A DNA stretch of 64,000 nucleotides from Candidatus Methylomirabilota bacterium (GTDB lineage Bacteria > Methylomirabilota > Methylomirabilia > Rokubacteriales > CSP1-6), in the NCBI GenBank assembly GCA_035315345.1, contig DATFYA010000085.1:2288-66287 (forward strand). The letters are read 5' to 3'. This document shows positions 17,819-51,047 of the stretch, piece after piece. The notes under the pieces are model-generated. The model did no database searches, was not told the origin of the DNA, and saw only the letters and a program-made list of their open reading frames with translations. The translations under genes were made by a program, and so were the position numbers. Each line of letters starts with the position of its first letter. Position 1 is the first letter of the stretch.

Positions 17819-18142
17819 ATGAGTGTCCAGGTCTACATCCCGACGCCGTTCCGCCGCGCGACCAGGAACGCGGACCGGGTCTCCGTGGAGGCGCCCGACG
17901 TCAAGGGCCTGCTCGACGAGCTCGAGGACCAGTTCGGCGGGCTGAAGGGTCTGGTGCGCAACGAGCAGGGCGAGGTCCACCACCACGTCAACATCTACGT
18001 CAACAACGAGGCGATCGAGGCGCTCCAGGGACTCGACACCGCGCTAAAGGACGGCGACGAGGTATCGATCATTCCAGCCCTCGCGGGCGGCGGGCCAGCC
18101 CTCGCGGGCGGCGGGCCGGCCCTCGCGGTGGGACGGGGCTGA
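17819..18142 (+). CDS. MoaD/ThiS/CysO-family sulfur-carrier protein with repeated C-terminal extension
   Basis: Beta-grasp carrier, …VNIYVNNEAIEALQGLDTALKDGDEVSIIPALAGG…, followed by GPALAGGGPALAVGRG. AGGAG RBS 8 nt upstream. The 3' end carries a 21-bp tandem duplication. Confidence 0.65.
   Translation: MSVQVYIPTPFRRATRNADRVSVEAPDVKGLLDELEDQFGGLKGLVRNEQGEVHHHVNIYVNNEAIEALQGLDTALKDGDEVSIIPALAGGGPALAGGGPALAVGRG
18081..18139 (+). repeat. 21-bp tandem duplication (about 2.7 copies, GCCCTCGCGGGCGGCGGGCCA-like) forming the 3' end of the CysO-like gene
   Basis: AGCCCTCGCGGGCGGCGGGCC / AGCCCTCGCGGGCGGCGGGCC / GGCCCTCGCGGTGGGACGGGGCTGA read directly from the sequence. It encodes PALAGGG-PALAGGG-PALAVGRG. 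Confidence 0.8.
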
Positions 18143-18152
18143 CCGCGCCCGG

Positions 18153-18614
18153 ATGATCCTCACGTCCGACGAGCTGCAACGGGTGCGCGCTCAGGCGGTG
18201 ACGGAGTACCCGGCGGAGTGCTGCGGCGTTCTCCTGGAGCGGACCTCACCCGAGCCGGACCGGCTCCTGATGCCCTGCCGCAACATCCAGGACGAGCTGC
18301 ACGCCAAGGACCCGGTGCGCCACTCGCGCGATTCCCGCACCGCCTACTTCATCGATCCCAAGGACCTGCTGGCCATCGGCCGGCGCGAGGGGCAGGGCTA
18401 CCGCGTCGCGATCATCTATCACTCCCACATCGACACCGGGGCCTACTTCTCGGCGACCGACCGGCAGAACGCGCTCATCAACGGCGAGCCCGCCTATCCC
18501 GACGCGGTCTACGTCGTGCTGTCGGTGGTGGACCGCCGCGTGGACGACGTGGCCGCGTTCGTCTGGGACAAGTCCGCGCGCGATTTCGCGCCGACCGACT
18601 TCACGCCCTCCTGA
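18153..18614 (+). CDS. JAMM/MPN+ (Mov34) metalloprotease, Mec+/QbsD-like
   Basis: E-x(n)-HSH-x7-S-x2-D zinc motif (…[18 protein letters not shown]…), 153 aa, immediately after the sulfur-carrier gene. Confidence 0.75.
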
Positions 18615-18618
18615 TCGC

Positions 18619-19899
18619 GTGACCGGCTCCGACGATCTCTTCGAGCGCGCCCAGCGCCTCATGCCCGGGGGCGTCAACAGCCCGGTGCGGGCGTTCCGCG
18701 GCGTGGGCGGGGCCCCGTTCTTCGTGGCCCGCGGGGACGGGGCCCGCGTGTTCGACGTCGACGGCCGCTCCTACGTCGACTTTCTCGGCTCGTGGGGGCC
18801 GCTGATCCTCGGGCACGCGGCGCCGGCGGTGGTGGAAGCGCTGACCGAGGCGGTGCGCCGCGGCACCAGCTACGGCGCACCCACGCCGGGCGAGGTGGAG
18901 ATGGCCGATCTCATCGGCCGCGCGGTGCCGAGCATGGAGATGGTGCGGCTGGTCTCGTCGGGCACCGAGGCCGGGATGAGCGCGATCCGGCTCGCCCGCG
19001 GCGCCACCGGGCGCGACTTCATCATCAAGTTCGACGGCTGCTACCACGGCCACGCCGACAGCCTGCTCGTGAAGGCGGGGTCCGGCGGCGCCACCTTCGG
19101 GGTGCCGGACAGTCTCGGCGTGCCGCCCGCGTTGGCCGCGCTCACCCTGACGGTCCCGTTCAACGATCTGGACGCGGTCCGACGCCAGCTCGAGGCGCAT
19201 CCCGAGCAGGTGGCGGCGGTGATCGTGGAGCCGGTGGCCGGCAACATGGGCGTGGTCCCGCCCGCCCCCGGATTCCTCGCCGGCCTGCGCGACCTGACCG
19301 CGCGGCACGGCAGCCTGCTCATCTTCGACGAGGTGATCACCGGGTTCCGGGTCGCGTGGGGCGGCGCGCAGGCCCGTTACGGCGTGCGGCCGGACCTGAC
19401 CTGCCTCGGCAAGATCATCGGCGGGGGACTGCCGGTGGGCGCCTACGGCGGCTCGCGCCGCATCATGGAGCGGGTGTCGCCGCTGGGCGGCGTCTACCAG
19501 GCGGGGACGCTCTCCGGGAACCCGCTCGCGGTGGCGGCCGGCCTCGCCACGCTCCGCGCGCTGCAGACGCCCGGCACGTACGAGCGGCTGGAAGCCCTCG
19601 GCGCGCGTGTCGAGCGCGACGTGGTCGAGGCGGCCCGCGCGGCGGGCGTTCCGGTGACCGTGAATCGCGTCGGCTCGATGCTGACCGTCTTCTTCACCGA
19701 CGGCCCGGTGACCGACTATAGCTCCGCCAAGCGCGCCGACACCACTCGGTACGCGCGCTACTTCCACGCGATGCGAGAGGGCGGCGTGTTCCTGGCGCCC
19801 TCGCAGTTCGAGGCGGCCTTCGTCTCGCTCGCCCATCGCGACGAGGACCTGGCGGAGGCGGCCCGCGCCGGCCGCGAAGCGCTCCAGAAGGTCCGCTAG
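18619..19899 (+). CDS. hemL: glutamate-1-semialdehyde 2,1-aminomutase
   Basis: …[20 protein letters not shown]… class-III aminotransferase with PLP lysine region. GTG start. Confidence 0.95.
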
Positions 19900-20069: not shown

Positions 20070-23000
20070 ATGAGTGTGATGGATCGCCGGTCGTTCTTCA
20101 AGATCGTCGCCACCACCGGCGCCGCGGCGGCGACGGGCGGCTGCGGACCATCGGCAGGAACGCTCCTCCCCTACGTCGTCCCTCCCGACAACATCGTCCC
20201 CGGCGTACCGGCATATTTCTCGACGGTGTGCCGCGAGTGCCCAGCCGGATGCGGCCTCATCGCCAAGAACCGCGACGGCCGCGTGATCAAGCTCGAGGGC
20301 AACCCGGATCATCCGGTGAACACCGGCGCGCTCTGCATCCGCGGTCACGCTGGACTGCAGGCGCTCTACCATCCCGATCGGTTCCGCGGCGCGCTGGCGA
20401 AGGGCCAGCCGGTCGCCTGGGACGACGCCGAGAAGCAGGTGGCCGACAAGATCGCCGCCCTCGCCGGCGGCAAGCAGGGCGGGCGCATCGCGATCGTGAG
20501 CGGGCTCGAGACGGGAAGCCTCGGCCGGCTGATGGACGAGTGGGTGCGGCTGGTGGGCGCGCGTCCGCGTATCTCGTACGAGCCGCTCGCCTACGAGGCG
20601 GTGCGGGCGGCGAACCGCATCACGTTCGGACGGGACGCGATACCGGAGTACGCGATCGGCGAGGCTGCGTACCTGGTGTCCTTCGGCGCCGACTTCCTGG
20701 AGACGTGGCTGTCGCCGGTCGCCTACACCGCCGACTTCTCGCGCATGCACGCGTTCTACCAGGGGCGCACCGGCACCTTCGTGCACGTCGAGCCCCGGGC
20801 GTCGATGACCGCTGCCAACGCGGACGAATGGGTGCGGAACGCGCCGGGCACCGAGGGGCTGCTCGCCCTCGCCATGCTCAAGGTCGTCGTGGACGAAGGG
20901 CTCGCGACGGGCGGCGGCGATCCGAACACGCTGCGCTCGGCGACCCGCTCGGCGGACGTGGACGCGGCCGCGTCGGCCTCCGGCGTGCCCGCCGACACGA
21001 TCCGACGGGTCGCGCGGGACCTGGCGCGCTCGAAGGCGGGCCTCGTCGTCGGTGGCGGGATGGCCGGCGCCGGCTCCAGCAGCACGGACACGCTGGTCGC
21101 GATCAACCTGCTCAACGTGGCGATCGGGGCGGTGGGCCCCCGCGTCCGCTTCGGCTCGGCCTCGGCCTTCGGGCGCGCGAATCCCTATTCCGACATGGTG
21201 GCGCTGACCCAGGCGATGGCGGGCGGGCAGATCGACGTGCTGGTGCTGGTCGACGTCAACCCGGTGTATGCGATGCCTGCGAAGTCGGGCTTCGCCGACG
21301 CGCTCGGCAAGGTGCCGCTGGTCGTGGCCCTCGCGAGCCGATCGAGCGAGACGACGGCGCGCGCCGCGGTGGTGCTGCCGACCCTGCATCCGCTCGAGTC
21401 GTGGGGCGACTATTCGCCGCAGGAGGGCGTGCTCGGGCTCCTGCAGCCCGCGATGGGGCCGGTGCTGATCGAGGGCAAGCCGGTCCAGGCGAAGAACCCC
21501 GGCGACATCCTCTTGAGCGTGGGCCGTCAAGCCCTGCGGCTCGAGGAGGGCAAGGGCCCGCTGCCCTGGCCGACCTTCCGCGATTTCCTCACGGAAGAGT
21601 GGCAGAAGATGGCGCGGGCCCAGGGCAGCGCCGAGCCGTTCCCGGCCTATTGGGAGGCGGCGCTCCGGCGGGGTGGAGTGTGGCGGAACGTCCCGCCGAG
21701 CCCGATGAGCTTGCGGCCGGAGGCCGGTCGGGTTTCGGCCGCGCCCGCGCGGCTGGACGGCAACGGCTCCCACGTGCTCCTCGTGTATCCGTCGAGCCGC
21801 TTCTACGACGGCCGTGGCGCGGACCGGGCATGGCTGCAGGAAGCGCCGGACCCGATGACCCAGGTGAGCTGGGACGCCTGGGTCGAGGTGCCAACCGAGA
21901 CGGCGACCCGGATGGGGATCCGGCGCGGCGACCTGCTCACCCTGACCTCGCCGAACGGCGCGATCGAGCTGCCCGCCTATCCGACCGATCTCGTGCACCC
22001 CGGGGCGGTGGCGGTGCCCATGGGACAGGGGCGCAAGCTGTCGGGTGCCTATGCGGCCGGGACGCCGTCGACGGCGGCCAGCAACCCGCAGCCCAGCACG
22101 TTCCTGAACGTGGGAGCGAATCCCGTCGATCTCCTCGGGTCGACGCCCGATCCCGCGTCGGGTGGTCCCATCTACCTCGGCGTGAAGGTGTCGCTGGCGC
22201 AGACCGGAGGGCGGCGCGCCCTCGCGGTGCCGCAGGCCACGTTCGATCAGGACGAGCGCGAGCTCGCGCAGTACGTGGGCCTCACCGCCGCCCGCGAGCT
22301 GGACCTGCGCGGACGGGCCCCGGCCGACGCCAGTCATCCGAGCATGTATCCGCCGATGAAGTACGCCGAGTACAAGTGGGGCATGACGGTGGACGTGGAC
22401 CGCTGCACCGGCTGCTCGGCGTGCGTGGTCGCCTGTCAGAGCGAGAACAACGTCCCGGTGGTGGGACGCGAGCAGGCGGCCTACGGGCGCATCCAGCACT
22501 GGCTGCGGCTGGAGCGCTGGCAGGAGGGCACCGCCGCGCAGCCGCTCAACATGTTCATGCCGATGTTCTGCCAGCACTGCGAGGTGGCGCCGTGCGAGCC
22601 GGTGTGCCCGGTCTACGCGGCCTACCACACCCGGGAGGGCCTGAACGGGCAGGTCTACAACCGGTGCGTGGGCACGCGGTACTGCGGCAACGCGTGCCCG
22701 TACCACGTCCGGCGCTTCAACTGGTTCAACTACACGTGGCCGGCCCCGCTCGACCAGCAGCTGAATCCGGACGTGACGGTGCGCGAGGCCGGTGTGATGG
22801 AGAAGTGCACGATGTGCCTGCAGCGCATCGTGGCCGCCAAGGCGCAGGCGCGCGATGACGGGCGGGCGGTGCGCGACGGCGACATGCAGACCGCCTGTCA
22901 GCAGACGTGCCCGACCCGCGCGATCACCTTCGGCAACCTGAAGGACGCCAACGCGGAGAGCGCCAAGCTGGCGCGGTCGCCCCGCGGCTACCACGTGCTC

Positions 23001-23096
23001 GGGGAGATCGGGACCCAGCCCAGCGTGACCTATCTCAAGAAGGTCGTGCGCACCGAGCCCGCCGGCGGCCACAAGGCCCCCGGAGGCCACGCGTGA
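20070..23096 (+). CDS. actB: alternative-complex-III-like subunit ActB (Tat-exported molybdopterin-oxidoreductase-like domain fused to a 4x[4Fe-4S] ferredoxin domain)
   Basis: GGAGGAG RBS. Twin-arginine signal MDRRSFFKIVATTGAAAA. N-terminal half molybdopterin-oxidoreductase-like. C-terminal half has CxxCxxCxxxC clusters (CTGCSACVVACQSE…, CQHCEVAPCEPVCP…, CVGTRYCGNACP…). About 1008 aa. Confidence 0.7.
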   Translation: MSVMDRRSFFKIVATTGAAAATGGCGPSAGTLLPYVVPPDNIVPGVPAYFSTVCRECPAGCGLIAKNRDGRVIKLEGNPDHPVNTGALCIRGHAGLQALYHPDRFRGALAKGQPVAWDDAEKQVADKIAALAGGKQGGRIAIVSGLETGSLGRLMDEWVRLVGARPRISYEPLAYEAVRAANRITFGRDAIPEYAIGEAAYLVSFGADFLETWLSPVAYTADFSRMHAFYQGRTGTFVHVEPRASMTAANADEWVRNAPGTEGLLALAMLKVVVDEGLATGGGDPNTLRSATRSADVDAAASASGVPADTIRRVARDLARSKAGLVVGGGMAGAGSSSTDTLVAINLLNVAIGAVGPRVRFGSASAFGRANPYSDMVALTQAMAGGQIDVLVLVDVNPVYAMPAKSGFADALGKVPLVVALASRSSETTARAAVVLPTLHPLESWGDYSPQEGVLGLLQPAMGPVLIEGKPVQAKNPGDILLSVGRQALRLEEGKGPLPWPTFRDFLTEEWQKMARAQGSAEPFPAYWEAALRRGGVWRNVPPSPMSLRPEAGRVSAAPARLDGNGSHVLLVYPSSRFYDGRGADRAWLQEAPDPMTQVSWDAWVEVPTETATRMGIRRGDLLTLTSPNGAIELPAYPTDLVHPGAVAVPMGQGRKLSGAYAAGTPSTAASNPQPSTFLNVGANPVDLLGSTPDPASGGPIYLGVKVSLAQTGGRRALAVPQATFDQDERELAQYVGLTAARELDLRGRAPADASHPSMYPPMKYAEYKWGMTVDVDRCTGCSACVVACQSENNVPVVGREQAAYGRIQHWLRLERWQEGTAAQPLNMFMPMFCQHCEVAPCEPVCPVYAAYHTREGLNGQVYNRCVGTRYCGNACPYHVRRFNWFNYTWPAPLDQQLNPDVTVREAGVMEKCTMCLQRIVAAKAQARDDGRAVRDGDMQTACQQTCPTRAITFGNLKDANAESAKLARSPRGYHVLGEIGTQPSVTYLKKVVRTEPAGGHKAPGGHA

Positions 23097-24445
23097 GCGC
23101 TCCTCCGGCCGGCGCCGCGCAGCCCACGTGGGCCGACGTCAACCACGATGTCGACCGGACGCTGCTGACCGCGGGTAACACCTACTTCGCGTGGATGACG
23201 CTCATCGCGCTCATCCTCGCCGCCGGCGTGGCCGCGTGGGCCTGGCAGATCTGGGTCGGCTTGGGCGCGGCCGGTATCCGGACGCCGCAGATGTGGGCGC
23301 TCTACATCACCAACTTCGTGTTCTGGATCGGTATCGGCCACGCGGGCACGCTGATCTCCGCCATCCTGTATCTCTTCCGGGCGAAGTGGCGCACCTCGAT
23401 CTACCGGGGCGCGGAGGCCATGACCGTCTTCGCGGTCATGACCGCGGGGCTGTTTCCGCTGATCCACGTCGGGCGCATGTGGTTCGCCTACTGGCTCATG
23501 CCCTATCCGAACCAGCGCTACCTCTGGCCGAACTTCAAGTCGCCCCTCATCTGGGACGTGTTCGCGATCTCGACCTATCTGACCATCAGCGTGGTCTTCT
23601 TCATCGTGGGCCTCGTGCCGGACATCGCGGCGATCCGCGACCGGTCCACCGGGCTCAAGCGGAAGGTCTTCGCGGTCTGCGCGCTCGGCTGGGAGGGGAG
23701 CGACTGGCAGTGGCGGCACTACCGTCGCGCCTACGGACTGCTCGCCGCGCTGGCGACCCCCCTCGTGCTCTCCGTGCACAGCGTGGTGTCGTTCGACTTC
23801 GCGATGGCCCTGATCCCCGGCTGGCACTCGAGCCTGTTCGCCCCGTTCTTCGTGGACGGAGCCATCTTCTCGGGCTTCGCCATGGTGCTGATCCTCATCA
23901 TCCCCATGCGCGCCGTGTTCGGCTGGCACGCCTACATCACCGACCGGCATCTGGACGCGATGGCCAAGCTGACCCTGGTCACCAGCCTGGTGCTGACCTA
24001 CTTCTATCTCTGCGAGTCGGGCACCGCGTGGTACAGCGGCGAGGTGTACGAGCGGGCGTCGCTCTTCGCGCGGGCCTTCAAGGCCTACACGTTCACCTTC
24101 TGGCTGCAGTACATCTGCAACTCGCTGATCCCCCTCGTGCTCTTCTGGCGGAAGGCGCGGACCAACCTGGTGATCCTGTACGTGGTGTCGATCTTCGTCC
24201 TCATCGGCATGTGGCTCGAGCGATTCAACATCATCGTCCCCGGTCTGGGCTATGACTTCTATCCGTACACGTGGGGCGTGTACCTGCCGCGCGTCGTGGA
24301 CACCACGATCACGGTGGCCTCCTTCGCGTGGTTCTTCCTGCTGTTCCTGGGCTTCATCCGCGTGATGCCGTCGCTGTCGATCGTGGAGGTCAAGGAAGTC
24401 TTGCCCCATCCGCTCAAGCACGGCGCCCATGGAGGCCATCACTGA
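23093..24445 (+). CDS. actC: NrfD/PsrC-family polytopic membrane subunit (ActC-like quinol-interacting subunit)
   Basis: GTGA overlap with actB. About 10 predicted TM helices, NrfD-like. Confidence 0.7.
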   Translation: MSAPPAGAAQPTWADVNHDVDRTLLTAGNTYFAWMTLIALILAAGVAAWAWQIWVGLGAAGIRTPQMWALYITNFVFWIGIGHAGTLISAILYLFRAKWRTSIYRGAEAMTVFAVMTAGLFPLIHVGRMWFAYWLMPYPNQRYLWPNFKSPLIWDVFAISTYLTISVVFFIVGLVPDIAAIRDRSTGLKRKVFAVCALGWEGSDWQWRHYRRAYGLLAALATPLVLSVHSVVSFDFAMALIPGWHSSLFAPFFVDGAIFSGFAMVLILIIPMRAVFGWHAYITDRHLDAMAKLTLVTSLVLTYFYLCESGTAWYSGEVYERASLFARAFKAYTFTFWLQYICNSLIPLVLFWRKARTNLVILYVVSIFVLIGMWLERFNIIVPGLGYDFYPYTWGVYLPRVVDTTITVASFAWFFLLFLGFIRVMPSLSIVEVKEVLPHPLKHGAHGGHH

Positions 24446-24953
24446 GATGGCGACCGCCAACGTGCTCGGGGTGTTCGCGCACGTCGACACCACGCTCCAG
24501 GCCATCCGGGACCTGCGGGCCAAGGGCTTCGGGGACCTGACCGTCTACACCCCGGTTCCGGTGGAGGAGATCGAGGAGGAGGTGGAGAGTGTCCGCCCCG
24601 TGTCCTCGGTCCGGCTCTTCACGCTGGTCGGCGGCCTCACCGGCACCGCGACCGGCTTCTTCCTGACGATCTGGACCTCGCTGAAGTGGGAGCTGCTCAC
24701 CGGCGGGAAGGCGGTCGTGTCCATCCCGCCCTTCATCATCATCGCCTTCGAGCTGACCATCCTCCTGGGCGGGCTGGCCAGCGCCCTCGCCATCCTGGTC
24801 CTGGGACGCCTGCCGAAGCTGCGGCCGTCGGCCACCTACGATCCGCGCTTCACCCTGGATCGCTTCGGGGTCGCGGTGGCGTGCCCGGCCGACAAGGTGG
24901 ACTCGGTGAGCTCGGTGCTGTCCGGCGCGGGCGCGGAAGAGGTCCGGCGATGA
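24429..24953 (+). CDS. actD: ActD-like small membrane subunit (DUF3341 family)
   Basis: 174 aa, two TM helices, N-terminal …ANVLGVFAHVDTTLQAIRDLRAKGF… resembles DUF3341. Position fits ActD. Confidence 0.55.
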   Translation: MEAITEMATANVLGVFAHVDTTLQAIRDLRAKGFGDLTVYTPVPVEEIEEEVESVRPVSSVRLFTLVGGLTGTATGFFLTIWTSLKWELLTGGKAVVSIPPFIIIAFELTILLGGLASALAILVLGRLPKLRPSATYDPRFTLDRFGVAVACPADKVDSVSSVLSGAGAEEVRR

Positions 24954-25456
24954 TGAAGTGGGTGTTCGTGCTGTCGCTGCTGGTGGTGGGGGCCTTCGGC
25001 GGCTGGCTCGCGCTGAACGTGGTGCACTGGTGGCAGACCGACATGTTCCACACGCAGCGGGTGATGCCCGGCGAGGCGGCCTACTCGATGCCGACCGGCA
25101 GCCTTCCGCGCAACGGCGGCCAGATGTACTACTCGCCGGCGGATCGTGATGCCGCCGCGGCCCGGCGCAATCCGATCGCGGCCACCACCCAGTCGGTGAG
25201 CCGCGGCGGAGAGCTCTTCGCGATCTACTGCACGCCGTGCCACGGGGCCAGCGGCAAGGGTGACGGCCCCGTGTCCACGAAGTTCGTCCCGCCGGCCGAC
25301 CTCACGAACCCGGAGCTGCAGAAGGTCCGCACCGATGGGTACTGGGAGAGCTACCTGAGCGTCGGCGGCGCGGTCATGCCCTCGTACGGCGAGGCCCTGA
25401 CGCCCGACGAGCGGTGGGCGATCGTGAACTACGTGCGAACGCTGGCCAAGAAATGA
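24950..25456 (+). CDS. actE: monohaem c-type cytochrome (ActE-like)
   Basis: Signal/anchor then a single CTPCH haem-binding motif with downstream Met. ATGATGA overlap with actD. Confidence 0.65.
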   Translation: MMKWVFVLSLLVVGAFGGWLALNVVHWWQTDMFHTQRVMPGEAAYSMPTGSLPRNGGQMYYSPADRDAAAARRNPIAATTQSVSRGGELFAIYCTPCHGASGKGDGPVSTKFVPPADLTNPELQKVRTDGYWESYLSVGGAVMPSYGEALTPDERWAIVNYVRTLAKK

Positions 25457-26598
25457 GCGCGAACACGACCGTGTCGGCCGCTCCGGTCCCGCGCGTGCCC
25501 CAGCCGCTGCTGGTCCTGCTGGCCGCCCTCGGGATCGTCGCCTTCCTCTACGGCATCACCCAGGGCCAGCCGCTCCGGACCTGGATGATCTACCTGATCA
25601 ACCTGCTGTTCTGGTCGAGCCTGGCCATCACCGGGCCCGCCATCGCCGGCATGATCCAGGTGACGGAGGGGCGCTGGTCGCCCACCATCAAGCGGATCGC
25701 GCTGACGACCGCCGGCTTCCTGCCGGTGTCGTTCGTGCTCTTCCTCGTGCTGTTCGCGGGGCGGGCGGTCCTGTACCCGTGGGTGAGCCATCCGCTGCCC
25801 AACAAGGCGGCCTGGCTGAACGTGCCGTTCATGTCGCTGCGCATCGGCATCGGCGTGCTGCTGCTGTACTGGGTGGCCATGCGCTACACCAAGGCGGTGT
25901 TCGCGGCCGACCAGGCCGGCATCCCGGCCGAGGTGGGCAACGACCGGCTGATGCGGCTCAGCACCATCATGCTGATCCTGTACGTGGTGGTGCTGTCGCT
26001 CTGGGGCTTCGACCTCATCATGTCGCTCGATCCCATCTGGTACAGCGGCCTGCTCGGCGGCTACTACGTGGTGAGCTCGATGTACACCGGCTTCGGCCTC
26101 GTGACCTACCTCACGCTGCGCTACAACCAGGCGGGCGTGACCGCGGTCGCCCCGAAGGCCATCCAGGACGTCACCAAGCTCACGTTCGCGCTGAGCATCG
26201 TGTGGATGTACTTCTTCTTCTCGCAGTACCTGATCATCTGGTACGGCAACGTGCCGAACGAGACCCGCTTCTTCGTGCTGGGCTTCCTGCAGCAGCCGTG
26301 GGGGCGCCTGGCCTGGGCCATCTTCATCGTCGGCTGGCTGATCCCGTTCTCGTATCTGCTCAAGCGCCTCACCGGGCGGCCTCCCACGCGGCACAAGGTC
26401 CTCACCGTGATCCTCTGGATGGGCTGGATCGCGATCTTCTTCGAGCGGGTGCTCGTCGTCTCGGTGTCCCTCAAGCAGACCGCGATCCCGCACGGCATCA
26501 TCGAGGTCCTGGTCACGCTCGGCTTCTTCGCGCTGTTCATGCTGAGCCGCACCTGGTTCCTCGCTCGCTACAAGCCGGTCCTGAACCTGTCCCGGTAG
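25453..26598 (+). CDS. actF: polytopic membrane subunit (ActF-like, NrfD-related)
   Basis: ATGA overlap with actE. About 10 TM helices. Final gene of the cluster. Confidence 0.55.
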   Translation: MSANTTVSAAPVPRVPQPLLVLLAALGIVAFLYGITQGQPLRTWMIYLINLLFWSSLAITGPAIAGMIQVTEGRWSPTIKRIALTTAGFLPVSFVLFLVLFAGRAVLYPWVSHPLPNKAAWLNVPFMSLRIGIGVLLLYWVAMRYTKAVFAADQAGIPAEVGNDRLMRLSTIMLILYVVVLSLWGFDLIMSLDPIWYSGLLGGYYVVSSMYTGFGLVTYLTLRYNQAGVTAVAPKAIQDVTKLTFALSIVWMYFFFSQYLIIWYGNVPNETRFFVLGFLQQPWGRLAWAIFIVGWLIPFSYLLKRLTGRPPTRHKVLTVILWMGWIAIFFERVLVVSVSLKQTAIPHGIIEVLVTLGFFALFMLSRTWFLARYKPVLNLSR

Positions 26599-26640
26599 GT
26601 CGGGCCGCGGGCGGAGCGGCCGCGCGGTAGAATACGCGGC

Positions 26641-27867
26641 GTGATCTCCGTCGAAGAGGCCCTCGACCGCATTCTCTCCCGCGTGGCGCCGCTGGGCGAC
26701 GAGCGCGTCGCGCTCCCCCAGAGCCTCCACCGCGTGCTCGCCGAGGACATCGACAGTCCGCGCGACATGCCGCCCTGGCCGGCCTCCTCGATGGACGGCT
26801 ACGCGCTTCGCAGCGACGACACCGGCGCGGCCGCCGCCAGGTCTCCCGCCCGCCTGGCGGTGGCCGGGCGCGTGCCGGCGGGCGCCATGGCCGAGCGCCC
26901 GCTCCGGGCCGGCGAGGCCTTCCGGATCTTCACGGGGGCGCCGCTACCCGAGGGCGCGGACTCGGTGATCCCCCAGGAGGACGTCACCGAGGAGGGCGGC
27001 GCGCTGCTGGTGCCCCGCCCCGTGAGCGCCGGCGACTTCGTGCGCCCGCGCGGTGAGGACATGACGCGGGGCGATCGGGTCCTCGAGCGGGGGCGCGTGC
27101 TCAGCGCCGCCGACATCGGCCTGCTCGCCACCGTCGGGCGGGCGCGGGTGAGCGTGATCCGTCGGCCGCGCGTCGGGATCCTGTCCACCGGCGACGAGCT
27201 GGTGGATCTGGGCGGGCGCATCGGTCCCGGTCAGATCCCGAACTCCAACAGCTACTCGCTCGTGGCCCAGGTGCTCGAGGCCTTTGCCGAGCCGGTGAGC
27301 CTCGGCATCGCGGGGGATCGCCTGGAGGATATCGAGGGTCGGCTGCGCTGGGGGCTCGGGTGCGATCTGGTGATGTCCTCCGCCGGCGTCTCGGTCGGCG
27401 AGCACGACTTCGTGAAGGACGCGCTGGCCCGTCTCGGCGCCGAGCAGCATCTCTGGCTGGTGGACATGCGTCCCGGAAAGCCGATCGCGTTCTCCACGAT
27501 CCCGCAGGACGGCAAGGCCGCGCTGGCCCTCTTCGCGCTGCCGGGCAACCCGGTCTCCGCCATGGTGACCTTCGAGCTGTTCGTGCGCCCCGCCCTCCTC
27601 CGCATGGCCGGGCACTCGCGCCTGCAGCGGCCGACCATCACCGCGCACGCGCTCGCCGCGATCAAGAACGGCGACAGCCGCCGCGGCTATCTGCGCGTGA
27701 CCCTCACGCCCGACGGCGACGGCTATGGCGCGCGCCTCACCGGCACGCAGAGCTCGGGCGTCCTCCGCTCGATGGTCGCCGCCGACGGCCTCGCCGTCGT
27801 CCCCGGCCGCACGACGATAGAGCCGGGCCAGCCCGTGAAGGTGATCGTCCTCCGGCAAGGCCTGTAG
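26641..27867 (+). CDS. moeA: molybdopterin molybdenumtransferase
   Basis: …SVEEALDRILSRV…PWPASSMDGYAL… and the GGTG-like motif (…STGDELV…). 408 aa. GTG start. Confidence 0.9.
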   Translation: MISVEEALDRILSRVAPLGDERVALPQSLHRVLAEDIDSPRDMPPWPASSMDGYALRSDDTGAAAARSPARLAVAGRVPAGAMAERPLRAGEAFRIFTGAPLPEGADSVIPQEDVTEEGGALLVPRPVSAGDFVRPRGEDMTRGDRVLERGRVLSAADIGLLATVGRARVSVIRRPRVGILSTGDELVDLGGRIGPGQIPNSNSYSLVAQVLEAFAEPVSLGIAGDRLEDIEGRLRWGLGCDLVMSSAGVSVGEHDFVKDALARLGAEQHLWLVDMRPGKPIAFSTIPQDGKAALALFALPGNPVSAMVTFELFVRPALLRMAGHSRLQRPTITAHALAAIKNGDSRRGYLRVTLTPDGDGYGARLTGTQSSGVLRSMVAADGLAVVPGRTTIEPGQPVKVIVLRQGL

Positions 27868-44799: not shown

Positions 44800-44874
44800 G
44801 CGGGAATAGCTCAGTGGTAGAGCACAACCTTGCCAAGGTTGGGGTCGCGGGTTCGAATCCCGTTTCCCGCTCCA
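44800..44874 (+). tRNA. tRNA-Gly (anticodon GCC)
   Basis: Cloverleaf by eye. Acceptor GCGGGAA/TTCCCGC, anticodon loop TTGCCAA, T-loop GGTTCGAATCC, 3' CCA encoded. Confidence 0.9.
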
Positions 44875-44885
44875 TATGACTGAAG

Positions 44886-44961
44886 GGCGGCGTAGCCAAG
44901 TGGCTAAGGCGGAGGTCTGCAAAACCTCTATTCAGCGGTTCGAATCCGCTCGCCGCCTCCA
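44886..44961 (+). tRNA. tRNA-Cys (anticodon GCA)
   Basis: Acceptor GGCGGCG/CGCCGCC, anticodon loop CTGCAAA, T-loop GGTTCGAATCC, CCA encoded. Confidence 0.9.
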
Positions 44962-44990
44962 ACTTGGCAGGCGGTCCAGCGATCGGATTG

Positions 44991-45078
44991 CCGGGGTGGC
45001 GGAACTGGGAGACGCGGCGGACTTAAAATCCGTTGGTCCGCAAGGGCCGTGGGGGTTCGATTCCCTCCCTCGGCACCA
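44991..45078 (+). tRNA. tRNA-Leu (anticodon UAA), class II with long variable arm
   Basis: Acceptor GCCGGGG/CCTCGGC (one G-U), anticodon loop CTTAAAA, long variable stem-loop, T-loop GGTTCGATTCC, CCA encoded. Confidence 0.85.
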
Positions 45079-45113
45079 GAGGTGAAGCGCACTCAAGCAC
45101 GGAGGCAAACAAG

Positions 45114-45569
45114 GTGGAGACCTTGAAGGTAGTCCGGAAGACCTTCACGATGTTGAGCGAGAAACGGACACAGGTCCTGGACATCACCAAGCAGATCCGG
45201 GACATCGTGCTGGGCGCCGACATCAAGGAGGGCATCATTCTGGTCAACTCCCTCCACACCACCTGCGCCCTGTTCGTGAACGAGTTCCAGGGAGCCCTCG
45301 TCGAGGACCTCAAGACGATGATGGATCGCCTGGTCGCCGACGATGCCGGCTACAAGCACGACGACCCGCGCTTCTCGGACTGCGAGCGGGGCAACGCGTC
45401 CTCCCACCTCCGTGCCGCCCTGCTGGGGAGAAGCGTGGCGGTCGGCATCAGCGGTGGCGAGCTGTCGCTCGGCCGCTTCCAGTCCATCCTCTTCGCCGAG
45501 CTCGACGGGCCGCGGACCCGGAGCATCGACATCCAGATCATGGGCGTCGGGCCAGCGGGGGGGAACTGA
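45114..45569 (+). CDS. YjbQ-family (UPF0047) secondary thiamin-phosphate synthase-like protein
   Basis: …KTFTMLSEKRTQVLDITKQIRDIV…SHLRAALLGRSVAVGISGGELSLGRFQSI… matches the YjbQ fold. GTG start with GGAGG RBS chosen; ATG 45150 is the alternative. Confidence 0.7.
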   Translation: METLKVVRKTFTMLSEKRTQVLDITKQIRDIVLGADIKEGIILVNSLHTTCALFVNEFQGALVEDLKTMMDRLVADDAGYKHDDPRFSDCERGNASSHLRAALLGRSVAVGISGGELSLGRFQSILFAELDGPRTRSIDIQIMGVGPAGGN

Positions 45570-45605
45570 GGGCTTCTGCAGTCAGTCGTTTGAATCTTTA
45601 GGCTC

Positions 45606-45775
45606 TATCTTATGCGGGGGCCCGGAAATGGCCCCCGCACTCCCCCAGTCGGCGGACGTTCGTAGGCCCCCGCACTCCCCCAGTCCGCGGACGTTCGTAG
45701 GCCCCCGCACTCCCCCAGTCCGCGGACGTTCGTAGGTCCCAGCAATCCCCCGGGGCGCGGACTCTTCGCGGCGGT
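45606..45775 (+). repeat. REP-like hairpin (TGCGGGGGCC-7 nt-GGCCCCCGCA) followed by a 35-bp tandem array (3 perfect copies plus 1 degenerate copy)
   Basis: Unit GCCCCCGCACTCCCCCAGTC(G/C)GCGGACGTTCGTAG at 45631-45665, 45666-45700, 45701-45735. Degenerate fourth copy to about 45774. Same family as 5249-5340. Confidence 0.8.
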
Positions 45776-45882
45776 TTCGGTCTGCGGCTTCGGTTTGTGG
45801 TTTTGGCTCCTTCTCCCCGAGCGTCTTCCGCTGGTGCTCCGGCCGGTGGGGGCCGGTTGGGCGTGATAGACTGACGCGCAGT

Positions 45883-47604
45883 ATGTCCTGGAAGCTCAAG
45901 AAGAAGGCCCAGACGCTCGTCGCCTCCGAAGAGGGTGTGATCCACAAGGAATGGGGCGGTCGTGTGTCGATCGCGCTGGTGTACCCGAATACCTATGCGG
46001 TCGGGATGTCCAACCTCGGCTTCCAGACCATCTACGACCATCTGAACGCGCTGCCGCAGGTGGTGTGCGAGCGGGTCTTCTTTCCGGATCCCGAGGATCT
46101 GGACGAGCACGTCCGGACCGGGACGCCCCCGTTCTCGCTGGAGTCGCAGCGTCCCTTGACCGACTTCGACCTCGTGGGCTTCTCCATCACCTACGAGGGT
46201 GACTACATCAACACGGTGCGTCTGCTCCGCATGGCCGGCCTGCCGGTGCGGGCGGCGGACCGGGGGCCCGGCGATCCGGTGGTGATGATGGGCGGGGTCT
46301 GTGCTTTCTCGAACCCGGAGCCCATGGCCGCCTTCATGGACTTCGTGGTGGTCGGGGAGGGGGAGGAGGTCGTCCGCGAGATCGTCGACGCCTGGAGCGC
46401 GAGCGGAGCCGACGGCGACCGCGACGGGCAACGGAGCCGCTTCATCGAGCGCGTGAAGCCGCTGGTCGGAGTGTACGTGCCCGACGCCTACCGGGTCGAC
46501 TACGGTGCGGAGGACCTGATCGCGTCGGTCGAGGCGGTCGAAGCGGGTGTCCCGGCGCTGGTGCTCAAGCGCCGCCTGAAGGACGTCAATCGCTTCGAGA
46601 CCCGCTCGGCGCTCAAGACGCCGCGGGCCGAGTACGGCCACATGGAATTGCTGGAGGTCGGCAAGGGATGCGGCCGTGGCTGCCGGTTCTGCCTCGAGGG
46701 CCAGGTGTACCGGCCGGTGAGGCACCGGAGCCTCGACGCCCTCCGCGAGTCGGTGGCGCGCATCGCGAAGGAGTCCAAGCGCATCGGGCTGGTGGGGGCC
46801 TGCGTCTCCGACTACCCGTGGATCGGGGAGCTGATGAAAGTGCTGGAGGAGAACGGGGTGGAGGTGTCGATCTCCTCGCTCCGCGCCGACAGCCTCACCG
46901 AGGACCTGGTCGCCTCGCTGCAGCGCGGCGGTCACCGGACCCTCACGATGGCGCCGGAGGCGGGCACCGAGCGGCTGCGCGCGGTGGTGCGCAAGGCGAT
47001 CACCGACCAGCAGCTCTACGAGGCCTGCGAGCTGCTGCGGCGGTACGGGATCCCGAATCTCAAGTGCTACTTCATGATCGGGCTCCCCACCGAGACACGC
47101 GAGGACGTGGAGGCGATCCCGGACCTCGCGGCCCGTCTGCTGGAGCGCCTGCAAGTCCTGGGGCCGGACGGCCATCCCTTCGGCAAGCTGACCCTGTCGG
47201 TCTCGTCGTTCGTGCCCAAGCCGTGGACGCCGTTCCAGTGGGCGCCGTTCGACGATCCGCGCGCCCTCGAGGACAAGCTCGACCTGATCAAGCGCGCGGC
47301 GCGCCGGCTCGACACGATCCGGGTGGTGCACGAGAACCCGCGGGAGGCCGCGCTGCAGGCCCTGCTGGCGCGCGGCGATCGGCGGGTGGCCGACTTCATC
47401 GAGCTGGCCGCGGGCCTCGACGGTGACTGGCGGCGCGCGCTCCGGGAATGGGACCGCGACCCGAGCGCGTACACCCGGCGCCCGCGCGCGACGACCGAGA
47501 TCCTGCCGTGGGATCACTTCGACGTCGGGGTCAAGAAGGCCGGCCTCCTGCGCGAGTGGGAGCGAGCCTGTCAGACCGCCGCGCCGGCGGCGGCCTCGGG
47601 ATAG
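45883..47604 (+). CDS. radical SAM protein with N-terminal B12-binding-like domain (TIGR03960-like, uncharacterised family)
   Basis: N-terminal …[28 protein letters not shown]… and radical-SAM cluster CGRGCRFC (Cx3Cx2C variant region …[14 protein letters not shown]…). 573 aa. Confidence 0.65.
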
Positions 47605-47609
47605 CCGCG

Positions 47610-47915
47610 ATGGCGTCCGTGATGGTGGCCAGGGTCGCGGAGGTGCCGCCCGGTCAGGCCCGCGTGGTGCAGGCCGGGGTGAAGACACTCGCGCTGTTCA
47701 ACGTGGATGGCGCCTTCCACGCCATCGACAACGCCTGCCCCCACCGCGGCGGGCCGCTGGGCGACGGCGACCTGGACGGACGGCTCGCCATCTGCCCGTG
47801 GCACGGCTGGCGCTGGGACGTGACCACCGGAGCCAACGCCAACAACCCCGCGGTGAAGATCGCGTGCTTCCCGACCCGGGTCGAGAACGGCGACGTCTAC
47901 GTGGAGCTGCCGTGA
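47610..47915 (+). CDS. Rieske [2Fe-2S] domain protein (NirD/small-ferredoxin type)
   Basis: CPHRGG…CPWHGW cluster-binding boxes. 101 aa. Confidence 0.75.
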
Positions 47916-48925
47916 TCCGCGACACGTTCGATCGGCCCCTGCGCAACCTGCGGCTATCCGTGACGGATCGCTGCAACCTGCGCTGTCAGTACTGCATGCC
48001 GGAGGAGGAGTACGTCTGGCTGCCCCGGGACGACATGCTGAGCTTCGAGGAGATGGGGCAGCTGGTCGACGTCTTCGCCGAGCTGGGCGTGGACAAGGTG
48101 CGCCTCACCGGCGGCGAGCCGCTGCTTCGCCGTGATCTCGACCGCCTCGTGCGCCTGCTCGCGGGCAATCCGCGCCTCCGCGACCTGGCCATGACCACGA
48201 ACGGGGTGCTGCTGGCCGAGCAGGCCGACGCCCTCCGGGCCGCCGGCCTGCAGCGGGTCACGGTGAGCCTCGACACCCTGCGCGAGGATCGCTTCAAGGC
48301 GCTGACCCGTCGCGACACGCACGCGCGCGTGCTCGCGAGCATCGAGGCCGTGTCGGGCTGGCCCGGGCTCAAGCTCGACACGGTGGTCATGCGCGGGATC
48401 AACGACGACGAGCTGGCCGACCTGGTGGAATACGCCGGCCGCGTCTCCGCCGAGGTGCGCTTCATCGAGTACATGGACGTGGGGGGCGCGACCCACTGGA
48501 GCATCCAGCGGGTCGTCTCGCGCGCCGAGATGCTGGCGAGCCTCGGGGCGCGCTACGGGACGATCGTGCCGATCCAGGAGGACTCGTCGGCGCCCGCCGA
48601 CCGCTTCCGCCTGCCGGACGGGCGCGTGTTCGGCATCATCTCGTCCACGACCCAGCCGTTCTGCCGGAGCTGCGATCGCAGCCGGCTCACCGCCGACGGG
48701 CTCTGGTATCTCTGCCTGTACGCGGTGCGGGGGACGGATCTGCGGCAGCCGCTGCGCGCGGGCGCGTCGCGGGAAGACCTCCTGACCCTGATCCGGTCCA
48801 CGTGGCAGGGCCGCCGGGACCGCGGAGCCGAAGCCCGGCTGGCCACGCCGGAGCGCCGTCCGCTGATCCAGATCGGCGAGCTCAAGCGCGATCCGCACCT
48901 GGAGATGCACACGCGGGGAGGCTAG
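47912..48925 (+). CDS. moaA: GTP 3',8-cyclase (molybdenum cofactor biosynthesis protein A)
   Basis: N-terminal CNLRCQYC radical-SAM cluster, C-terminal auxiliary cluster [18 protein letters not shown] (Cx2Cx13C), and C-terminal GG. GTGA overlap with the Rieske gene. Confidence 0.9.
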
Positions 48926-48927
48926 GC

Positions 48928-49632
48928 ATGGCGGACGTACCGGGGGTGGACGTGCGGGAGCGCGGAGCGGGCGGACAGGTCTCCGATCGACGCCTGTTCA
49001 TGCAGCTCCAGGCCTGGAGCGGCTGCGCCGACGGCAAGCCCCTGGTCGCCGCGGTGGAGCGCAGCCGGATCGAGGGCGTGCTCTATCACGACCTGAACGA
49101 CCCGGCCGGCGTGGCGCTCCTCGCCCTGCACGAGGACCCCGCGTTCTTCGCCACCGGGCTCCGCGAGGCGCTGCACGGCGAGCCGTTCGCCTCGCTCCGT
49201 CATCGGCCCGAGCTCACGATGCTCGGTCGCACCTACGCCTCGGGCTTCGAGCCCGACCTGGCCGACTGGCTGCTCGGGCGTCCGCGGCGCACCGTGCTCA
49301 ATCCGGCGTGGCCCTGGGGCATCTGGTATCCCCTGCGCCGGTCCGGCGCCTTCGCCCGGCTCACCCCGCAGGAGCAGGGCGCGATCCTGAAGGAGCACGG
49401 CACGCAGGGGCGGGCCTATGGTGACGCCGACCTCGCGCACGACGTGCGCCTGGCCTGCCACGGCCTCGACACCAACGACAACGACTTCGTGATCGGGCTC
49501 ATCGGCCGGGACCTGCACCCGCTCTCTCATCTCGTGCAGGCCATGCGGCGGACCGCGCAGACGTCTCAGTATCTCCAGAGCCTCGGCCCCTTCTTCGTGG
49601 GGCACGTGCTCTGGCAGAGCGCGCCGCGGTGA
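48928..49632 (+). CDS. chlorite dismutase / HemQ (coproheme decarboxylase) family protein
   Basis: C-terminal half …ILKEHGTQGRAYGD…HGLDTNDNDFVIGLIGRDLHPLSHLVQAMRRTAQTSQYLQSLGPFFVGHVL… fits the Cld-family ferredoxin-like repeat with the proximal His region. Starts 3 nt after the moaA stop. Confidence 0.55.
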   Translation: MADVPGVDVRERGAGGQVSDRRLFMQLQAWSGCADGKPLVAAVERSRIEGVLYHDLNDPAGVALLALHEDPAFFATGLREALHGEPFASLRHRPELTMLGRTYASGFEPDLADWLLGRPRRTVLNPAWPWGIWYPLRRSGAFARLTPQEQGAILKEHGTQGRAYGDADLAHDVRLACHGLDTNDNDFVIGLIGRDLHPLSHLVQAMRRTAQTSQYLQSLGPFFVGHVLWQSAPR

Positions 49633-50027
49633 GCCCGGCGCTCGCTCGTCGCGTCCGTGGCCTGCGCCCGCTCGCGGCGGTCGTCTTGCTGGCCGCGGCG
49701 TGCGGGCTGGCGGGCTGCGCGCCGCTGCCGCCCGCCCGACAGGTGGCCGACATCGGCTTGATCGAGGGGCGCTGGCAGGGCCAGATCAAGTTCGGCTTCG
49801 GCGGCTACCAGCTCTTCTACCCGACGATCTATCCCGACGGACGGCTGGTCGCCTCCTGGGACGGGGTGACGCGGTACGGGCAGGTGACGGTGGGGCCCGG
49901 ACCCACCCGCTTCAGCCTCTACATCTGGAGCGGGAGCCTCGACTACCTGGAGGGCGGTGGTGAGCGGGTGATCCTGATGAAGGAGGACTTCGGCTCCTGG
50001 GACGCGATCGTCCGTCCCCTCAAGTAG
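49629..50027 (+). CDS. hypothetical lipoprotein
   Basis: Signal peptide plus lipobox (LLAAACGLAGC). 132 aa. No recognisable domain. Confidence 0.4.
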   Translation: MSPALARRVRGLRPLAAVVLLAAACGLAGCAPLPPARQVADIGLIEGRWQGQIKFGFGGYQLFYPTIYPDGRLVASWDGVTRYGQVTVGPGPTRFSLYIWSGSLDYLEGGGERVILMKEDFGSWDAIVRPLK

Positions 50028-50517
50028 GGCGGCCGGCCTTCTGCCAGGCGGCCAGGTTGGCCTCGATCTGTCGCGCGTGGATCTCCAGATGCTCGGCGTA
50101 GATCCGCAGCCAGTCCTCGGCGGTATACCGGCCCGAGGCGGTGTGTCGCCCTTCGCGGCGCCAGGCTTCCTCGGGCAGCGTGCGGATCACCAGCGCGGTG
50201 GTGGCGCGGACCGCGCGTACGGTGGCGAGGGCTGGCGGAAGCGGCTGGCCGTGATAGTCGAGCGCCACCGCCCAGACGTTCTCGTCGTAGCCGAGCACCA
50301 GCGGGTCCGGCTCGCACACCACGTAGCGGATGCGCGCGGCGGCGTTGGTCTCGGAATCCGCGCAATGCCAGATCACCTCGTGGGCGGACCACTCGCCGGG
50401 CGCCGGCCGCCACTGCCTCGCCTCGGCGGGCACCGTGGCGATCGCTCGCTCGAGCCGCGCGGGCCCGTCGGCGTATCGCTGGATCAGCTGCGCTCGTTCG
50501 GATCGAGTGAGGGCCAT
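50020..50517 (-). CDS. DinB/YfiT-like (DinB_2 superfamily) four-helix-bundle metalloprotein
   Basis: His triad spacing typical of the DinB_2 fold (…HEVIWHCADSE…, …HLEIHARQ…). 165 aa. Confidence 0.5.
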   Translation of the reverse strand: MALTRSERAQLIQRYADGPARLERAIATVPAEARQWRPAPGEWSAHEVIWHCADSETNAAARIRYVVCEPDPLVLGYDENVWAVALDYHGQPLPPALATVRAVRATTALVIRTLPEEAWRREGRHTASGRYTAEDWLRIYAEHLEIHARQIEANLAAWQKAGRPT

Positions 50518-50519
50518 CG

Positions 50520-51047
50520 GTGATCGCCTCCGTGATCGGTCATCGCGTCCGCTCCCTGGTCGTCGCCGCGGCGGTCCTCGTGACCCTCGTGCCCGCGGCG
50601 GTCGCCCAGGAGGCGCCGCCGGCCGGTCGCGTGGACGCGGCCGGGCTCAAGGCGCTGCTCAACACACTCGGCTATCAGCCCCGGGAGTCGCGCAACGAGG
50701 CCGGCGTGGAGTACGAGATCGTCCTTCGCGCGGCGGACACCCGCGCCATCACCACGCGGGTCACCCTGTCCAAGGACGGTGCGCTGGTGTGGCTGGTGGC
50801 CTGGCTCAAGCGAGTGCCGACGAACCGCACCATCAGCGGCAACGCGGTCCTGGGCATGCTGATCGAGAACGACGCCATCGGCCCGACCCACTTCTCCTAC
50901 AACGAGGGCCGCCGCTGGTTCTTCCTCAACAAGCCGGTCGTCAACGTGGACCTCACCGCCGAGCGGCTGCGCGGCGAGTTCACGCACCTCGGCGCCACGG
51001 TGTCCCGTACCGAGGGCCTGTGGGATCCCGACCGCTGGAAGAAGTGA
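50520..51047 (+). CDS. hypothetical secreted protein (possibly YbjN-like fold)
   Basis: Cleavable signal peptide (…LVTLVPAAVAQE…). 175 aa. Domain call is weak. Confidence 0.35.
   Translation: MIASVIGHRVRSLVVAAAVLVTLVPAAVAQEAPPAGRVDAAGLKALLNTLGYQPRESRNEAGVEYEIVLRAADTRAITTRVTLSKDGALVWLVAWLKRVPTNRTISGNAVLGMLIENDAIGPTHFSYNEGRRWFFLNKPVVNVDLTAERLRGEFTHLGATVSRTEGLWDPDRWKK

Follow-up and report, generated by a model that had tools for sequence, protein, structure and literature searches.

Does an operon that joins genes for a radical S-adenosylmethionine (SAM) enzyme, a Rieske protein, MoaA and a chlorite dismutase (Cld)-like protein encode a dedicated pathway, or is it a gene order that a single lineage has inherited? 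The question is raised by a locus of a Candidatus Methylomirabilota bacterium, which we analyzed as part of a stretch of 64,000 nucleotides (nt) of contig DATFYA010000085.1 (assembly GCA_035315345.1), hereafter the window. With moderate confidence we favour the second answer: the operon, which counts five genes, represents a gene order inherited within the Rokubacteria (Methylomirabilota) and brings together separate cofactor-biogenesis genes; that these do not share a dedicated pathway is what we infer.

Operon structure

The genes of the operon are the following.

45883-47604, + strand: radical SAM gene, an open reading frame (ORF) of 573 aa with matches to PF19864, PF04055 and TIGR03960
47610-47915, + strand: Rieske gene, an ORF of 101 aa with a match to PF00355
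47912-48925, + strand: moaA, an ORF of 337 aa with a match to TIGR02666
48928-49632, + strand: Cld-like gene, an ORF of 234 aa with a match to PF06778
49629-50027, + strand: lipoprotein-like gene, an ORF of 132 aa with coding GC content at third codon positions (GC3) and a GTGA junction

A first-pass annotation of the window had placed the first four genes at these very positions, with gaps of 5, -4 and 2 nt, and a direct reading of the bases gave exactly the same result. The radical SAM and Rieske genes are separated by TAG-ccgcg-ATG (a gap of 5 nt), the Rieske gene and moaA overlap by 4 nt (GTGA), and moaA is followed after 2 nt by the Cld-like gene (TAG-gc-ATG), with a Shine-Dalgarno-like run, GGGGAGG, just upstream. 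The GC content of the window is about 70%, the hits to its proteins carry the names Methylomirabilota or Rokubacteria, and spurious long ORFs are common in GC-rich DNA. A frame-specific profile gave GC3 values of 0.90-0.98 in the frames of the proposed ORFs, with a phase that switches precisely at their boundaries, and these are thus real genes. The description of a tightly coupled, co-directional unit is borne out by the junctions as well as by the GC3 phase, and to judge from the junctions the genes are almost certainly co-transcribed and translationally coupled. The size of the unit had been underestimated: the four genes are real, but a fifth belongs to them, since the start of the lipoprotein-like gene overlaps the stop codon of the Cld-like gene by 4 nt (GTGA) and its GC3 is that of a coding sequence. 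The 3' end of the unit faces a convergent DinB/YfiT-like gene (50020-50517, - strand).

Conservation of the gene order

To place the operon among its relatives, loci with relatives of the Cld-like protein were collected from genomes sampled at one per species, using a narrower alignment of the closer family members (A2). This yielded 80 loci, which were searched together with three metagenome loci (83 in all) for the proteins of the window by tblastn, over about 8 kb on each side. The Cld-like gene is directly preceded by the radical SAM gene in 33 of the 80 genome loci, and in 35 loci when two metagenome loci are added. The linked loci keep the other genes to very different extents.

MoaA between the radical SAM and Cld-like genes: 32 of 35 linked loci
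Radical SAM gene abutting the Cld-like gene, no MoaA between: 3 of 35 (L028, L032 and L039)
Rieske gene present: 12 of 35
yjbQ upstream: 12 of 35, the same number as for the Rieske gene
gltD kept: 26 of the 26 linked loci with enough flank
galT kept: 20 of the 25 linked loci with enough flank

We regard the comparison with the last two genes as decisive. Both gltD and galT are functionally unrelated to the operon, and they match MoaA in conservation and surpass the Rieske gene; the conservation is therefore that of background synteny. Moreover, the 35 linked loci all belong to a single Rokubacteria clade in a neighbour-joining (NJ) tree built from the Cld-like proteins. The sister loci from NC10 (L041 and L042) are unlinked, and four unlinked loci that are nested within the linked clade (L013, L023, L037 and L044) look like relocated or duplicated copies. 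Outside the Rokubacteria/NC10 and the adjoining ccm-linked Terriglobia clades, as judged from tree placement, there is no adjacent partner in any of the 37 loci, which carry the labels Acidobacteriota, Elusimicrobiota, Planctomycetota or Myxococcota. Two loci come near: in the Myxococcota locus L064 a TIGR03960+DUF2344 fusion lies 2.3 kb away on the opposite strand, and is lacking from the sister locus L079, and in L081 a MoaA-like gene (38% identical) is found about 7 kb from the Cld-like gene. An all-against-all clustering of the flanking ORFs of the 83 loci revealed no neighbour family that is shared across phyla, only lineage-local clusters. The largest cluster outside the Rokubacteria covers 10 of 45 loci, nearly all of them labelled Vicinamibacteria or unclassified Acidobacteriota, and the neighbour families that do recur are unrelated housekeeping genes.

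The first-pass annotation had taken the four genes for a self-contained cofactor-tailoring cassette, and had pointed to recurrence of the order radical SAM-Rieske-moaA-Cld in other genomes as a way to check it. The full set does recur, in 12 related loci only, but not in independent lineages. The cassette reading is not supported, given the single-clade origin of the linkage, the uneven retention of the Rieske gene and MoaA beside a fully retained gltD, and the lack of partners in other phyla.

Three side observations concern the collected loci. Eight contigs (L004, L005, L011, L013, L023, L030, L035 and L038) carry Rokubacteria-type Cld-like genes (66-89% identity) under discordant labels of metagenome-assembled genomes (MAGs), namely Dormiibacterota, Verrucomicrobiia, Acidoferrum, Sulfotelmatobacter, Nitrosocosmicus (an archaeon), Binatia, Gemmatimonadales and Acidimicrobiia. 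Full Rokubacteria-type synteny is found in L004, L005, L011, L030 and L035, and given their identity of 70-89% and identical synteny these syntenic contigs are probably mis-binned Rokubacteria contigs, i.e. MAG contamination. Secondly, the Cld-like genes of L023, L037 and L044 (around positions 6400-8700 of these loci) form a subclade outside the radical SAM-moaA context and are oriented divergently to genes that, on inspection by eye, look like those for an FAD-dependent oxidoreductase/halogenase-like protein and a class V aminotransferase; this subclade may be a paralogue. Thirdly, in L085 and L086, which contain MoaA but no Rieske gene, the Cld-like gene is followed after 27 nt by a gene (8735-9160) for a PNPOx-like FMN-binding protein (PF01243/PF12900). 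The PNPOx-like superfamily includes haem-degrading and biliverdin-reducing enzymes.

The Rieske, lipoprotein and MoaA genes

The individual proteins fit a set of separate functions. The Rieske protein scores 71.4 bits with PF00355 (gathering threshold 20.3) and has both ligand motifs, CPH(x16)CPWH, and it is a standard member of the small soluble [2Fe-2S] family. The product of the fifth gene is a predicted lipoprotein with a lipoprotein-type signal that ends in LAGC. Its 132 aa gave no match in NCBIfam, and homologues are present at the same position in 10 of the 35 syntenic loci. The Rieske and lipoprotein genes are best read as later, subclade-specific additions. Rieske centres have potentials that are much higher than those of radical SAM [4Fe-4S] clusters and are thermodynamically poor reductants for them, and on this ground the Rieske protein is an unlikely reductant for the radical SAM clusters.

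MoaA is a canonical, ordinary member of its family, the GTP 3',8-cyclase of the first step in molybdenum cofactor (Moco) synthesis. It scores 343.5 bits with TIGR02666 (cutoff 284.05; residues 3-322 on model positions 2-335), and the translation displays the N-terminal CxxxCxxC, the C-terminal Cys triad of the auxiliary cluster and the terminal HTRGG. The first-pass identification of the Rieske [2Fe-2S] protein agrees with the profile match and the ligand motifs, and that of MoaA, which it had called unambiguous, with the equivalog score, the motifs of both clusters and the Gly-Gly tail. The usual partners of MoaA had been reported as absent. This is true for the immediate neighbourhood, and moaC, moaD and moaE were not seen when the translations of the whole window were read by eye, but the window does hold a gene of the MoeA family (26641-27867), whose NCBIfam score of about 350 bits stays below all equivalog cutoffs.

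The radical SAM enzyme

The radical SAM protein matches PF19864 (Radical_SAM_N2) with 163.9 bits and PF04055 with 80.6 bits, and its CxxxCxxC motif reads CGRGCRFC in the translation. With TIGR03960 it scores 444.7 bits, where residues 11-565 align to positions 12-582 of the model; the curated cutoff of 462.3 is thus narrowly not reached, despite near-full coverage. The protein is a TIGR03960-type enzyme with an N-terminal B12-binding-like domain and a near-threshold member of an orphan family, in line with the earlier description of a 573-aa radical SAM enzyme of an uncharacterized family with such a domain. A DUF2344 domain was found neither in the protein itself nor among its neighbours in L001, L003 and L085. 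No relevant literature was found on TIGR03960, TIGR03936, DUF2344 or PF19864.

A divergent relative of ChdC/HemQ

The Cld-like protein scores 44.7 bits with PF06778 (Chlor_dismutase; cutoff 25), over its C-terminal half only, with no Pfam match in its N-terminal domain. The curated HemQ equivalogs are missed by a large difference: 33 bits against a cutoff of 235 for the actinobacterial NF042928 and 24.6 against 253 for NF008913. On these scores we class the protein as a divergent relative of HemQ, not as HemQ itself. The fold is complete: an AlphaFold (AF2) model built from 11 family members (pLDDT 86, pTM 0.85) displays the full two domains. The best matches of the model in the PDB according to Foldseek are the ChdC/HemQ proteins of Listeria, Geobacillus, Thermus, Corynebacterium and Streptomyces (probability 1.00, TM 0.65-0.71, identity 14-20%), and true chlorite dismutases rank slightly below. 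The profile of the family gave a similar ranking, with E values of 2e-8 to 1e-6 for ChdCs and of 0.03-1, over 40 residues, for Clds. The earlier placement of the protein in the Cld/HemQ superfamily is supported by the Pfam score and the fold, with the proviso that it is no standard HemQ.

Two residues connect the protein more specifically to ChdC. Tyr134 (in WYPLRR) aligns with the tyrosine of the FYPM/VYPF motif in 1VDH, LmChdC and CdChdC, where it corresponds to Y135 of CdChdC, and His157 (in EHG) aligns with the histidine of the (A/D/E)HG motif in the same three proteins. We take the aligned tyrosine to be the catalytic radical site of ChdC (Y145/Y147 in Firmicutes, Y135 in C. diphtheriae) and the aligned histidine to be the proximal haem ligand. 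Neither residue varies in alignment A2, and in the wider set the tyrosine at the catalytic position is lost only in one, probably frameshifted, member. The clade also has invariant motifs of its own in A2 (DVRLxCHGLD, DNDFVIGL and LGPFFVG). The invariant Asp172 aligns with Gln187 of LmChdC, an alignment that is approximate in this strand; Gln187 of Listeria HemQ presumably occupies the site of the distal Arg of Cld. There is no signal peptide and the protein is apparently cytoplasmic.

The gene has a different setting in other lineages. In the Terriglobia it is the last gene of an operon of the order ccmE-ccmF-ccmH-x-x-ccmA-ccmB-ccmC-(47 aa), as annotated by Pfam in L043 (1043-8696) and by precomputed Pfam matches in L084 (109-8720), and neighbours of the size of ccmB and ccmC are also present in the neighbour clusters of L036, L038 and L047. 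Because it closes this ccm operon, the Cld-like protein is probably involved in haem synthesis or haem handling. In the Elusimicrobia locus L053 a DUF420 protein is encoded two genes downstream; DUF420 is linked to the assembly of haem-copper oxidases. The gene precedes that for chorismate synthase in L064 (Myxococcota) and in L079, the sister locus without a classification, and in the Vicinamibacteria its neighbours encode a GNAT protein, a ferredoxin, an exonuclease and an amidase. A search at the level of representatives (E < 1e-30) returned 133 clusters at 50% identity for the clade, and natural fusions join the domain to an aldo/keto reductase, to PCP_red (PF08369, named for protochlorophyllide reductase) and to Clp_N (P0129, P0153, P0121 and P0151).

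Taken together, the Cld-like protein probably binds haem or coproheme and belongs to a clade that is ChdC/HemQ-like but divergent; it is most economically regarded as a divergent ChdC. The link to haem rests on the fold and profile matches to ChdC, the aligned Tyr and His, the place in the ccm operon and the PCP_red fusion. In support of such a role, hemA, hemC, hemD, hemB and hemL are encoded in the same window; hemE, hemY and hemH were not seen there when the translations were inspected by eye. Published work reports HemQ from Acidobacteria and Planctomycetes (PMC5095920) and describes ChdC as active in some diderm bacteria (PMC7611857, PMC10427985).

Proposed functions and points of doubt

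The favoured reading of an inherited gene order translates into the following scheme. The operon would be transcribed from its own promoter, situated just upstream of the start codon of the radical SAM gene, and each product would do its own job. MoaA, as a member of its equivalog family, is expected to cyclize GTP to 3',8-cH2GTP for Moco. The Cld-like protein, considering its fold and residues, would bind coproheme through His157 and use Tyr134 in the oxidative decarboxylation of the propionates, so that its most likely role is to carry out, or help with, the final step of the coproporphyrin-dependent route to haem. The Rieske gene would be a late insertion.

Several observations weigh against this. 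The tight junctions are kept in distant Rokubacteria (overlaps of 1-4 nt and gaps of 1-2 nt in L001, L003 and L085), and the pair of radical SAM and Cld-like genes outlasts the loss of MoaA in three loci; the kept coupling and the surviving pair may reflect selection for co-expression and not inertia alone. With respect to the role in haem synthesis, the HemQ cutoff is missed widely, identity to the solved ChdCs is as low as given above, and the sequence alignment to ChdCs covers no more than the C-terminal half. In addition, the invariant pair of Asp172 and Arg174 is without a described counterpart in ChdCs, and neither hemY/cgoX nor hemH/cpfC nor hemE was identified beside the Cld-like gene among the selected neighbours that were annotated by Pfam or by eye.

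Alternative explanations

The haem connection could also be of another kind, in which the Cld-like protein has no enzymatic part in making haem and is instead a haem-binding chaperone, a trafficking protein or a peroxidase-type protein that, for instance, hands haem to Ccm. We consider this unlikely, yet it accommodates the terminal position in the Terriglobia ccmE-F-H-A-B-C operon, the DUF420 gene near the Elusimicrobia homologue and the strong divergence from the curated HemQ models, and the invariant Asp172/Arg174 appears to recall the distal pair of DyP peroxidases. Nevertheless, the tyrosine that aligns with Y135 of CdChdC, where the ChdC radical forms, does not vary among the closer family members, ChdCs are the best matches in sequence and in fold, and it would be equally plausible for a ccm operon to end with the gene for a terminal haem synthase.

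A second alternative is that, in Rokubacteria, the radical SAM enzyme works together with the Cld-like protein as a functional pair, while moaA and the Rieske gene are inserted passengers. Such a pair could carry out, for example, an alternative or oxygen-independent terminal step of haem synthesis or a modification of tetrapyrrole side chains. In its favour, the Cld-like gene follows the radical SAM gene directly in 35 loci, among them the three that are without MoaA, and one Myxococcota locus (L064) has its TIGR03960+DUF2344 fusion 2.3 kb away, on the other strand. The Rokubacteria radical SAM protein is also without the DUF2344 domain that the TIGR03960-type protein of the Myxococcota has, and no DUF2344 gene is found nearby. 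Still, the pair is quite improbable: the linkage has a single phylogenetic origin and is missing from the NC10 sisters and from other phyla except L064 (and not shared by its sister L079), and the synteny of gltD is equally conserved. TIGR03960-type proteins are, moreover, far more widespread than the Cld-like clade, which counts against a common function. That the Cld-like fold might be related to DUF2344, the domain with which TIGR03960 is usually partnered, was considered as well and rejected, as hhalign detected no relation (probability 0.9%).

The third alternative follows the first-pass annotation in assigning all four or five genes to one novel cofactor pathway, either a variant route to a Moco precursor or a modified tetrapyrrole, in which two radical SAM enzymes, a Rieske protein as electron carrier and the Cld-like protein as tailoring enzyme would take part. 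The tight translational coupling, the 12 related loci with the full set and the presence of two uncharacterized products agree with such a pathway. We deem it highly improbable, since 23 of the 35 syntenic loci have no Rieske gene and 3 have no MoaA, the score of MoaA is that of a canonical equivalog, and in other phyla the Cld-like gene occurs alone or in unrelated contexts (the ccm operon, chorismate synthase, DUF420). The potentials of Rieske centres discussed above likewise argue against it.

The least credible reading is that of a chlorite dismutase beside moaA, as in (per)chlorate-reduction islands, where cld and moaA are reportedly adjacent; the Pfam family name Chlor_dismutase also speaks for it. 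Against it, a pcrAB-/clrABC-type reductase was not seen among the neighbouring genes when translations were read by eye, the family profile meets true Clds only at E values of at least 0.03 against 1e-8 for ChdCs, what we take to be the distal-Arg site of Cld holds an invariant Asp, a signal peptide is absent, and on the profile scores and the gene context the reading was rejected. A published study of the perchlorate reduction genomic island discusses both cld and moaA (5 and 6 mentions; PMC4623255).

The spacer upstream of the operon

The spacer between yjbQ and the radical SAM gene measures 313 nt and contains three features.

45614-45638, + strand: GC-rich hairpin GCGGGGGCC-N7-GGCCCCCGC, from the spacer alignment and the minimum free energy (MFE) fold
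45630-45762, + strand: 35-bp tandem repeat with unit GGCCCCCGCACTCCCCCAGTCCGCGGACGTTCGTA, 3.8 copies (TRF period 35, 92% matches)
45864-45872, + strand: putative extended -10 element TGATAGACT, from the conserved TG(A/G)TAGACT block

The hairpin, which follows yjbQ, is invariant in the aligned spacers of six close relatives and paired in the MFE fold, and is possibly a terminator-like or regulatory stem. In a permissive Rfam scan of 45500-45950 its only match was Yfr1, below threshold (E 0.35). The 35-bp repeat consists of the duplicated 3' arm of the hairpin with flanking sequence and is unique in the window, where 0 matches are expected by chance. Among the close relatives, L004, L005 and L007-L009 have one short match each to the unit, beside the conserved hairpin, and the array therefore looks like a recent local expansion; L006 has a match of 64 nt on the opposite strand. 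The block TG(A/G)TAGACT is invariant or nearly so in 7 aligned spacers in which the surroundings have diverged, and ends 10 nt before the ATG of the radical SAM gene. It is a possible extended -10 promoter element, which would make the transcript near-leaderless. Scans for consensus sigma-70 promoters and intrinsic terminators in 45400-50700 returned none, although such a scan says little at 70% GC. The RNA fold of the whole spacer is not significant (z = -1.18). A Moco or cobalamin riboswitch in front of the operon was considered and rejected; at the gathering threshold the Rfam matches in the whole window are three tRNAs only.

The wider window

Upstream of the spacer the order is comB-like, pgsA, plsY, gpsA and galT-like genes, then the three tRNAs, then yjbQ. 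The tRNAs, between galT and yjbQ, are tRNA-Gly(GCC), tRNA-Cys(GCA) and tRNA-Leu(TAA) (44800-45078). As the ORF at 45033-45569 overlaps tRNA-Leu, the true start of yjbQ is further downstream, near 45150. Downstream of the operon lie a gene for a secreted protein and, on the opposite strand, gltD/gltB.

The early haem genes, hemA-hemC-hemD-hemB ... hemL, form a cluster at 12395-19899 according to NCBIfam. Inspection by eye placed a gene for a CcsA-like membrane protein in front of hemA and, between hemB and hemL, an Rrf2 regulator and a cysK / ThiS-like / JAMM trio (of the CysO-type sulfur-carrier kind). The region 20079-27867, also read by eye, holds alternative complex III-like genes (a fused molybdopterin-like/4Fe-4S ActB, an NrfD-like ActC, ActD, a cytochrome c ActE and ActF), followed by the MoeA/Glp-family gene at its end.

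Significance

Being a lineage-specific arrangement of genes that can be explained separately, the apparent cassette is of little importance as a system. The Cld-like clade deserves more attention. It is ChdC-like, well conserved and common among uncultured diderm phyla, yet the curated HemQ models miss it and its annotation goes no further than "chlorite dismutase family protein". Should it provide the terminal haem synthase of these phyla, reconstructions of the haem pathway for Rokubacteria and Acidobacteriota will need to include it. The position of the gene at the end of the Terriglobia ccm operon offers a testable link between haem synthesis or handling and cytochrome c maturation. There is also a small chance that the clade, which spans Rokubacteria, Acidobacteriota, Elusimicrobiota, Planctomycetota and Myxococcota, has a role unlike that of the known ChdCs, e.g. 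as a diderm-type terminal haem synthase that feeds Ccm or as an Asp/Arg-assisted peroxidase-like haem protein, and partners the TIGR03960-type radical SAM enzyme in Rokubacteria. If true, this partnership would give the orphan TIGR03960 family its first functional context.

Comparison with known systems

The perchlorate-reduction island (pcrABCD-cld with moaA) has in common with the operon a Cld-family gene next to moaA. The differences are that here no reductase genes were seen among the neighbours, the protein is ChdC-like and not Cld-like in the strict sense, and the linkage is a lineage-specific gene order. In the usual setting of MoaA the gene is accompanied by moaC, moaD or moaE, whereas here it is not beside any of these and is placed between unrelated genes. 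The protein itself is like other TIGR02666 members, with a score above the equivalog cutoff, the Cys motifs of both [4Fe-4S] clusters and the C-terminal Gly-Gly.

The radical SAM protein shares with the TIGR03960 family the N-terminal PF19864 domain, the radical SAM core with CxxxCxxC and a match over nearly the whole model. Members of this family are often fused to, or located beside, a TIGR03936/DUF2344 protein; the Rokubacteria protein is without either, whereas the Myxococcota homologue in L064 has DUF2344. The Cld-like clade differs from ChdC/HemQ in that it is only 14-20% identical, falls below the curated HemQ cutoffs, has its own invariant motifs and has no hemY/hemH neighbour that was seen. 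At the same time it resembles the ChdC/HemQ proteins of Listeria monocytogenes (5LOQ), Corynebacterium diphtheriae (6XUC) and Thermus thermophilus (1VDH) in its two-domain alpha+beta barrel fold, its similar length and its apparently cytoplasmic location, and it has kept the Tyr of YP(L/M) and the His of (E/A)HG. Against this background the operon is not a new system; what is new is the arrangement, specific to one lineage, of genes whose kinds are known.

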